From Cenococcum geophilum (lineage: Eukaryota), in assembly GCA_050273025.1 (NCBI GenBank), contig CP158635.1, forward strand, positions 15,066,001 to 15,130,000: DNA of 64,000 nucleotides, written 5' to 3'. Below, piece after piece: positions 17,961 through 20,479 of the stretch; position 1 is the stretch's first letter, and every line of letters begins with the position of its first letter. The notes under the pieces were generated by a model that was given only the letters and a program-made list of their open reading frames with translations, was not told the DNA's origin and searched no databases. Made by a program: the position numbers and the translations under genes.

Positions 17961-20479
17961 TAGAGCTCCACCTAACAGTCGAATATGTAGAATCTTATAG
18001 TATAGTACTAGTTTCTTAATAAGAGGTCTATATAAAATAGATTAAGGTTCTAGCCGCCTTATAGCTTTTTAAAAAGAGCAGCTTTATAATTACTCGTTCC
18101 TTTCTTAATAATATATATACAGCTTTTATAAGGTGACAGGCTCCGCACCACCCAGCCACGGTATAAACCCCAAAAGGTAAGCGAGTGACTGGCAAGATGC
18201 CAGGCACGGCGGCTATGCGGAACAATATATATAGTTGTCTTAGCATGCTTAGACTATATAGGAGGCCGGATAAATCCGGCCCGATGGCACTAAACCAGTT
18301 TAGGCTATCTGTCCCTGTGTAGTCTAAGACACTTTAGCAGACGTTTATAAAGCACGCCGCGATATCTATATGGCTGATATTACGGATATTTACTTCTTAT
18401 TCTTACGATAAGTTTAGGCAGCTTAAAAAATCTATTAATTATATACTAGGCTCCGGCAAATTAAATAGTCTATATAAAAAGTCTCCCCGCCTTCCCATTC
18501 CTAACATTAATTTTAAAATAGCTGTAACGCGGTTTACTAAAGTAAATAATTAGCAATATCCGCACCAATAATGCGTTAATCTTAACTACCCACTCTCTAT
18601 CTATTATATCCATAATCTAATAATTAAAACCTATTAAGATCTATCTATTATAACGTATTTAAGTCCTCCTTACCTTTATCTAACCCTCTATTCTCCCTTT
18701 ACTACTTTTAAACGCTATTTACTAATACCTCTATTAAAGTAAATAAGGTAAAGAGGTTATAAACTATAAGCCAGTTAAGCAGATTAATAAGCTAGTAGTA
18801 TGTAATAGGCTAGGGATTATATTAAAATAGATCTCTAGCTATCTCTATAGCTATATAGCCTATAAAGGGAGCTACCTTAGCTTATAAGCAGCTTTTATAA
18901 ACTTTAAATAAGTAAGCTAGATAAAGCTATTACGGAGATATATCTATACTACGGTTATACGGAGCAGCTTAAGGCCCTAAGGGTGCTAATATTTAAGCGG
19001 CGAGATCTTATACTTATAGCAAAGACGTCTTTTAGTAAGAGTATAATAATATAAGTACTACTATGTCTTATACCTAATACAGTTATTATTATTATTCTTT
19101 TACTTAACGCGATTAGGTTAGAGCAAGTAAAAAAGATTATAAAGCTACCTTATGTTCGACCTATTTATATATAGGAGAAAATAATATCCGCTAAGCTAAT
19201 TAAGGATATCCGCACAGGCAGCTATATATATATCCTTATCTCCCTAGAGCTTTTAGTTAGTAATAAGCTATATAAGGTTCTAATAGACCCAATATTTCGT
19301 TCCTATATTACCCTTATAGTAGTTAATAAAGTATACCTACTTACTAATTAGGGAGAGACCTTCCGTATAGCGTATATATAACTCTTTAAAGTATGTTTAG
19401 TCTTAGTTAATAAGCCTTAGTTTATATATACCGCAACACTAGACCTATCTACGTTTTAGACTATATATAAGCTAGCTAGGTTTAAACCTAATATATAAGT
19501 TATTAAAACCCTAATTAATTGGCCGGAGCTAAAGATTATATAGAGGGTTATAACCGCGCTAGAGAAAAAGGACTTTTAAACTCTTTACTTTACTATTGCT
19601 GCTGCTCTAGTATATTTATATACTGCTAGTAATAATAATTAAGGAGAAGGTAAGTAATTAAGAAGCCACTTAATATCCGTATAGTAGATATACCGCTAAT
19701 AGTTTAATTAACTTCAGCTAATTCTAAAGATAATCATCTTCTTTAATTCTAAAGAGTGGATAGCTGCCTATTGTAATACTATTCGCAGCTAGTTAATCTA
19801 TCGCGGCTATAATGCTGCTATTACTAAAGAAGCGGTGTAGAGCTACTATATAACGCTTACGGATATTAATAAAGACCGCTTATACGCCAAATACGCGCGC
19901 CCAACGTCTTAAATTCGAATTTTTATTATATTAGATGCAGTAACATACGGTATAGATATCCCAGATATCTACCGTTTAATCTAATATAGAATACCTCGCC
20001 ATAAATCCTATAATATGCTGATATAGCGGTTTAGCTAGGCAGGCCAAGGAGAAGGCCTCTTAGGCGAAGCAATCTTTATAGTTAAGAGCCGCTAATAGGG
20101 TCCTTGCGATAAATTAGGTAGTTTTAAGTATACACAACCTTAGTGTAAAGGCGATCTTCGCGTAAGCGCGCTGCGTAATAATATCTGCGGGCGATAAAAC
20201 GTAGAGACTGCGGATATTACGGGCGATACTTTATCTATAGCGTTAGTTAGTACTAAGCAGTTGGTAGATATAAGAAGCGGGCGTAGGTTAAGCCCTAGTA
20301 GTTCTATAGCACGCCTACCTAAAGAGCTTATTATACTAACCCTACGCCTAAAAAAGCGGTTAACTAATGCGCAGTTATATAGTAAACTACCATTCACCCT
20401 ATAGCAGCTAGTTAATAAGGATTAGGTATACTTATAAGCAATATAACTTATACACTATAGAGACCCACAGTCTACTATT

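Follow-up and report, generated by a model that had tools for sequence, protein, structure and literature searches.

Compensated hairpin modules at both ends of a dead AcademH-type transposon in Cenococcum geophilum, candidate folded-DNA signals for end recognition

We analyzed a 64,000-nt stretch of Cenococcum geophilum DNA (contig CP158635.1, positions 15,066,001 to 15,130,000; here called the window, whose own numbering is used throughout). A DNA transposon occupies positions 18235..30567 and consists, in order, of a left end, an inward-reading helicase gene, a Gypsy element, an inward-reading transposase gene, and a right end. Base 18235 is the exact start of the element. It is flanked by a direct repeat of 9 bp, the target-site duplication (TSD), present as TATATATAG on the left (18226..18234) and TACATATAG on the right (30568..30576), with one C/T transition between the two copies. 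The empty-site form was found in a contig of run X1, which fuses both flanks with a single copy of the 9-bp repeat. At both ends the element carries a 22-nt terminal inverted repeat (TIR) that reads TTGWCTYAGCATGCTYAGACYA. The left TIR (TTGTCTTAGCATGCTTAGACTA; 18235..18256, plus strand) is the reverse complement of the right one (30546..30567, minus strand) and is itself a near-palindrome centered on GCATGC, with two CTYAG pentamers inside. When the two ends were aligned with strict scoring, the flanks beyond 18226/30575 were unlike each other, and in a local alignment that tolerated transitions the ends scored no better than shuffled sequences. An AT-rich block of the window spans 18.0-30.7 kb. 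A complete copy of 6429 bp, colinear with the Gypsy-free host element at 88% identity, is present in metagenome locus L043. The insertion flanks (18130-18225 and 30577-30610) are themselves repeated in the runs (depth of hundreds to thousands), and the transposon therefore lies within another repeat; one contig of the left flank has a 3-nt deletion at 18207.

The helicase gene remnant reads inward from the left end (18725..20398, plus strand) and was located by tblastn of an intact relative, P0001 (496 amino acids [aa]), of which aa 1-487 are covered in the window at 57% identity (E = 2e-167). The window gene is dead, with many stops from RIP-type transitions. P0001 had been found by a homology search with one frame of L043 (E = 6.8e-98). 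Its Pfam domains are DEAD and Helicase_C, the DEAD model scoring only 1e-7 in this intact protein, and 37 of its 39 PDB sequence matches belong to the RecQ family (RecQ, WRN, BLM, RECQ5, RECQ4, and RECQ1), the first four of these being the closest solved structures. Six-frame Pfam scans with X at stops detected no helicase in the window copy or in L043, where it was found later via P0001; a RIP-corrected consensus of about 11 copies still had 90 to 175 stops per frame and lacked helicase motifs. The transposase remnant (27895..28936, minus strand) reads inward from the right end and is known here only by its match to Pfam DUF6589 (E = 2e-29 / 4e-30), a domain that also lies at the matching place in the full L043 copy (E = 2.7e-37). 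In the supplementary files of PMC10799480, neither Academ nor DUF6589 is named. Between the two genes, at 20474..26384 (plus strand), sits a Gypsy-type LTR retrotransposon, a later insertion that is foreign to the transposon. Its LTRs (20480-20708 and 26156-26384) are 96% identical, and it has RVT_1, RNase H, integrase, and Tf2 SH3 domains. In three of the four runs, contigs skip from 20473 to 26380, which shows that the Gypsy insertion is missing from other copies of the host element. The Gypsy element itself has a very high copy number in the four runs, with differences that are nearly all transitions.

By its TIRs, 9-bp TSD, and helicase, the element fits the AcademH type, a known lineage of the Academ superfamily, with DUF6589 as the candidate transposase. 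The original prediction had called it AcademH-like from the window sequence, and that call is borne out by the 9-bp TSD and the plus-strand helicase remnant with its RecQ-like intact relative; the DUF6589 remnant is present as the candidate transposase. In the passages of PMC10045372 that deal with TSD length, AcademH elements have TSDs of 9 or 10 bp and AcademX elements have TSDs of 3 to 4 bp, and Kojima ties the longer duplications of AcademH to its helicase. Shared with AcademH as portrayed in sections of PMC10045372 and PMC10799480 are the TIRs, the 9-bp TSD, an SF2 DEAD/Helicase_C helicase beside the transposase, and a fungal host. The family described here differs in being compact, at 6.4 kb. 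Our literature search found no paper linking Academ to hairpins; the paper that defines AcademH lay outside this search, and a prior description is possible.

Several other repeats lie near the element. A foldback (MITE-like) repeat of about 150 bp with 41-nt arms is present at 17630-17790; its relatives are L009:458-609 (92% identical) and a diverged second window copy at 46971-47114. Next to it, at 17785-17951, is a near-perfect palindrome whose 80-nt arms are 96% complementary and lie 7 nt apart; searches of the window and the metagenome loci gave no further copy. On the right side, an inverted repeat with 52-nt arms (92%) placed 151 nt apart (31404-31658) lies just upstream of a tRNA-Gly (TCC) gene, which was called at 31690-31760 by both Rfam and ARAGORN.

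Each end of the transposon contains a hairpin module. The six sequence stretches that the original prediction had named as hairpin arms at the two ends are all present. The left module (18248..18328, plus strand) has an outer stem (18248-18262 / 18314-18328) of 13 Watson-Crick pairs and two T.G pairs, which encloses a first inner hairpin, GGCCGGAT-AA-ATCCGGCC, at 18264-18281 and a second, absent from the original prediction, at 18283-18309. For the left end (18235-18335) as single-stranded DNA, the predicted dG is -21 kcal/mol (z = -5.55), a value reached by 0 of 200 dinucleotide shuffles. The right module (30460..30555, minus strand) has an outer stem (30460-30480 / 30535-30555) with a single mismatch, a constant C.T; in a repeat search its arms could be extended to 24 nt at 92%. 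Its inner hairpins are at 30486-30515 and 30516-30532. The right end as single-stranded DNA has a dG of -31.6 kcal/mol (z = -7.48), again with 0 of 200 dinucleotide shuffles folding as well. The hairpins had been predicted to be nested; outer and inner stems are indeed present, but that picture was incomplete, as the predicted fold is a three-way junction with two inner hairpins. The two ends had also been predicted to have the same architecture, and they do: both have a stem base of CTYAGAC/GTCTRAG and inner hairpins built on CGGAT(A).

The modules occupy a fixed place with respect to the tips and to short conserved motifs. At either end they begin at base 13-14, counted from the tip. Just inside the left hairpin is a conserved block, CACTTTAGCA (18330..18339, plus strand), which is also present at the right end (30450-30459, minus strand), and in the left, right, and other end types alike, ACTTTRGC comes after the 3' arm. 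The CTCAGAC motif occurs in three copies per end in alternating orientation, two in the terminal 22-mer and one in the 3' arm, and some families add tandem CTCAGCAAGCTCAGAC units. A further motif, CGGATAT, is the building unit of the inner hairpins in four end types. It is strongly enriched in the host transposon (18235-20473 plus 26380-30567), whose 6.4 kb hold 22 of the 40 window matches (expectation for the whole 64 kb, 8.6), and several of its copies form inverted pairs, e.g., 27255/27267; CGGATAT is possibly a protein-binding tag. The Rfam 15 covariance models gave no match at E<=1 in 17400-31800 except for the flanking tRNA. Among the 40 of 2762 places listed at which the runs show letter variants, none lies within the hairpins.

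We then compared the modules with those of related termini. A RIP-tolerant scan of the metagenome contigs with the 22-mer gave at least 134 stretches with at least 134 distinct termini. Among the matches listed, 56 were left-type, 56 were right-type, 19 were of other types, and 3 were too short (L053, L080, and L105, with less than 90 nt beyond the TIR, were left unclassed). L074 and L100 were rejected as termini because they appear to be chance or unrelated matches, and the open reading frames adjoining the termini in L041, L052, and L013 were rejected as element genes because they are host genes. In 12 metagenome end pairs among the matches listed, the TSD length was exactly 9, judged by an exact shared 9-mer (chance expectation, ~0.03 matches), and no end pairs matched at 8, 10, or 11 among the termini listed. 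The ends and the TSD length are therefore exact, and elements of 987 to 6429 bp, bounded by the 22-mer as an inverted pair, have been mobilized. Two left-type termini in mirror orientation (L063:904-1043 and L114:301-440) have an exact common 9-bp flank, CTTCGTCAC, which suggests an element bounded by two left-type ends.

From the matches listed, we aligned 57 left-type rows including the window (A1) and 57 right-type rows (A2). In the left type, 17 to 18 pairs from base 14 make up the outer stem; of the two inner hairpins, one pairs GCCGGAT with ATCCGGC, and the other has 11 pairs and a one-base bulge that is constant. In A1, 90.6% of the 1924 pair cells were paired, versus 23 to 50% when the partners were slid by 1 to 3 columns. 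The right type has a 21-pair outer stem from base 13 and two inner hairpins; its outer-stem mismatch is constant in 57/57 rows, and 90.4% of the cells in A2 were paired, versus 26 to 41% when slid. Absence of the hairpins from relatives had been named as one outcome that would speak against the original prediction. They are present in 55 of the 57 left-type rows, where 12 or more of the 17 outer-stem pairs are intact (the exceptions being one truncation and one deletion), and in 56 of the 57 right-type rows, where 16 or more of the 21 are intact. The middle of the left stem is often mismatched, with pair 26/87 unpaired in 31/57 rows and pair 27/86 in 25/57.

In both alignments, 11 pairs were altered on both sides, versus a shuffle mean of 6.7 in A1 (reached by 0/500 shuffles) and 7.4 in A2 (reached by 4/500), in a control that leaves relatedness in. 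Most rows are RIP-mutated dead paralogues from a few related samples rather than independent genomes. Changes within a type are nearly all RIP-kind transitions that strike both arms in mirror-image contexts, and every within-type double change in the right-type outer stem is a transition. The covariation within types is thus inflated by shared descent and symmetric RIP contexts.

On the sequences at hand, we consider the comparison between families to be stronger evidence than covariation within a type. At least four further end types carry the 22-mer, with stems that are anchored on CAGAC...GTCTG and have wholly different extensions. The stem extension is CACACAGGGA in the left type (10/10 paired), CAAGAAAC.GATG in the right type and the L038/L058 type (12/13 paired), GTGATTTT in L107, L109, and L067 (8/8 paired), and GTGATTCCGGTGGT in L045 (11 Watson-Crick plus two G.T pairs of 14); L002, L054, L085, and L064 have a CATAGAATCAAC-like extension that is matched by its own complement. 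The extensions were compared directly for 9 of 14 representatives and taken from folds for the other five. All 14 folded representatives have a stem in which an inverted copy pairs with the terminal motif or with its extension, and in 11 of them this stem encloses a long loop. The z score of the whole segment ranged from -8.1 to -1.4 across the 14, being weak (-1.4 to -2.3) in L107, L109, L045, L064, L067, and L125. The termini of L016, L102, and L125 have the same 22-mer and no long palindrome, two of them with merely a 7-bp mini-hairpin. As unrelated extensions are each self-complementary, it is the pairing that is conserved, not the sequence. Compensatory change in relatives had been proposed as the check on the original prediction, and families with a common 22-mer do have different yet complementary stems.

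The architecture also extends beyond close relatives. In L067 (5083-7212), whose outermost repeat unit is missing, a hairpin module of the L107/L109 type lies about 400 nt upstream of a helicase that is 32% identical to P0001. L067 is a second, diverged AcademH-like family, and the architecture therefore spans clearly diverged helicase-bearing families. In another related family, a Helitron (Helitron_like_N, PIF1 helicase, and Pif1 2B domain) is found a few kilobases inside the terminus (L002:10776-13767). These domains belong to a separate nested element, and the locus is a nest of elements.

Parts of the module can be lost. The CGGATA hairpin is absent in 10 of 57 right-type rows, where one 23-nt unit is gone (e.g., L077 and L090/L091), and inner hairpin 1 is absent in 4 of 57 left-type rows (L095/L096 and L104/L118). 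Variants that have lost an inner hairpin sit at several loci with TSDs and have therefore been amplified after the loss. The inner CGGATA hairpin is dispensable. In L121 the entire loop is gone and the stem is kept, and among the termini listed there was no amplified variant without the outer stem.

Our preferred reading, for and against which we are evenly divided, is that both stretches act in cis as end modules of a dead DNA transposon of the AcademH type and would work as folded DNA in end recognition or transpososome assembly. Each end comprises a 22-nt TIR with CTCAGAC and, from base 13-14, an imperfect palindrome of 85 to 95 nt that is predicted to fold as a three-way junction, with a pair of small hairpins inside a long outer stem. 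The lowest part of this stem is formed by the second half of the TIR and an inverted copy of that half, so that the folded single strand would rebuild the duplex motif of the tip. Above it follows a family-specific extension in which only complementarity is kept. The fold could be a cruciform or, where a strand has been unwound, a hairpin; a palindrome with a 50- to 60-nt spacer is not easily extruded from duplex DNA, which counts against folding. Fold formation would need unwinding, and the encoded RecQ-like helicase would be a natural candidate for exposing the fold or removing it. We infer that the modules fold in vivo, that the transposase recognizes the fold, and that the helicase has a part in this; the tie between helicase and hairpin computed here is their co-presence in the same elements.

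The modules could instead be arrays of ordinary double-stranded transposase-binding sites, with a palindromy that has no structural role. Subterminal binding-site repeats are common in eukaryotic DDE transposons (En/Spm, hAT, Sleeping Beauty, and piggyBac), and the sequence-conserved parts of the modules coincide exactly with the motif copies in the 22-mer and the 3' arm, to which some families add the tandem units. However, such arrays leave unexplained the 8 to 14 extra complementary bases per family, which differ between families. They also do not account for the free spacing of the sites: in linear duplex, the terminal motif and its inner copy are ~22 to ~98 nt apart among the variants, and the two are always paired in the fold, which favors the folded form over an array of duplex sites. 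We consider this explanation unlikely.

The position of the modules fits a promoter or leader role equally well, since each lies upstream of an inward-reading gene. On the plus strand, helicase homology begins about 490 nt in from the left tip, the transposase is on the minus strand inside the right end, and L067 repeats the arrangement. The modules would then be gene expression elements, i.e., promoter or 5'-leader structures (DNA or RNA) for the helicase on the left and the transposase on the right. Such a role would have to place the same architecture and the same TIR-derived stem base before two unrelated genes, and short noncoding derivatives (987 to 1474 bp; L035, L040, L003, and L077) keep both modules, although deletion derivatives keep their ends anyway. 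Nor do two further results speak for an RNA. In the outer stems, G.T cells were not in excess over A.C cells (37 versus 41 in the left type and 39 versus 69 in the right type), with no indication that the sense strand tolerates wobble pairs as an RNA would, and no Rfam family matched; the same counts show no strand bias of the fold. A role in expression appears distinctly improbable. Least probable of all, and in our view quite remote, is that the palindromes are functionless (by-products of end origin or replication errors, or small selfish foldback insertions). In its favor, palindromes are prone to deletion and duplication, the variants (a 23-nt unit lost between direct repeats; loop deletions) resemble slippage products, and unrelated foldback repeats lie in the flank (17630-17951). 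Against it speak the position fixed at base 13-14, the anchor on the TIR motif, the occurrence of modules with differing stems in five or more end types, and an outer stem that is kept in every amplified subfamily listed.

Returning to ends that act as folded DNA, the idea may apply to the lineage as a whole. We suggest, tentatively and with some doubt, that AcademH elements might be cut-and-paste elements of the DDE kind with ends that are read in folded form: the RecQ-like helicase would unwind each end, the subterminal palindrome would adopt a three-way-junction hairpin or cruciform that restores the binding motif of the tip, and only this form would be competent for synapsis or cleavage. 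If true, this would give a reason why a helicase is needed in this lineage and in no other, and if the fold is the recognized form, a DDE transposase would here define element ends in a novel manner. Academ is among the least studied transposon superfamilies, and a conserved, compensated end module provides a concrete and cheaply testable hypothesis on what the helicase does. The modules would also be diagnostic for annotating AcademH ends and their noncoding derivatives in RIP-degraded fungal genomes.

Among known systems, piggyBac-like elements have subterminal or internal inverted repeats (STIR/IIR) that have been suggested to form hairpins or cruciforms, as stated in portions of PMC12324416. 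They resemble the present element in being eukaryotic DDE cut-and-paste transposons with inverted repeats just inside both ends, but, as far as those portions of PMC12324416 go, they encode no helicase, and the hairpin idea is likewise only a proposal, with no family-level compensatory stems. We also considered a single-strand transposon of the HUH/Y1 kind (IS200/IS605 or Helitron), which is ruled out by the TIRs, the 9-bp TSD, and the lack of a Rep/HUH domain in the six frames of the element (window and L043). Integron attC sites, the subterminal hairpins of IS200/IS605, and the 3' hairpin of Helitrons are single-strand sites that are recognized as folds; they are used by tyrosine or HUH enzymes on one strand, in elements that have neither TIRs nor such TSDs. 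The modules described here share with them a structure that is conserved over sequence and imperfect stems with constant mismatches or bulges, and differ in the TIRs, the 9-bp TSD, and the absence of a visible strand bias. The inverted terminal repeat (ITR) of parvoviruses such as AAV is a T- or Y-shaped palindrome of about 100 nt with a long stem around two small hairpins, in which a protein-binding duplex motif is rebuilt in the stem and the partner protein has helicase activity. In AAV, whose genome is linear and single-stranded, the ITRs form the extreme ends, serve as replication primers, and are nicked by an HUH endonuclease. The likeness to the modules extends to the long stem around two small hairpins, the binding motif rebuilt in the stem, and the helicase partner, whereas the module here belongs to an element with TIRs and 9-bp TSDs and starts 13 nt in from the tip. 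If the ends are indeed read as folds, they would be a eukaryotic counterpart of structure-specific sites of the attC, IS608, and ITR type inside a TIR/TSD transposon.
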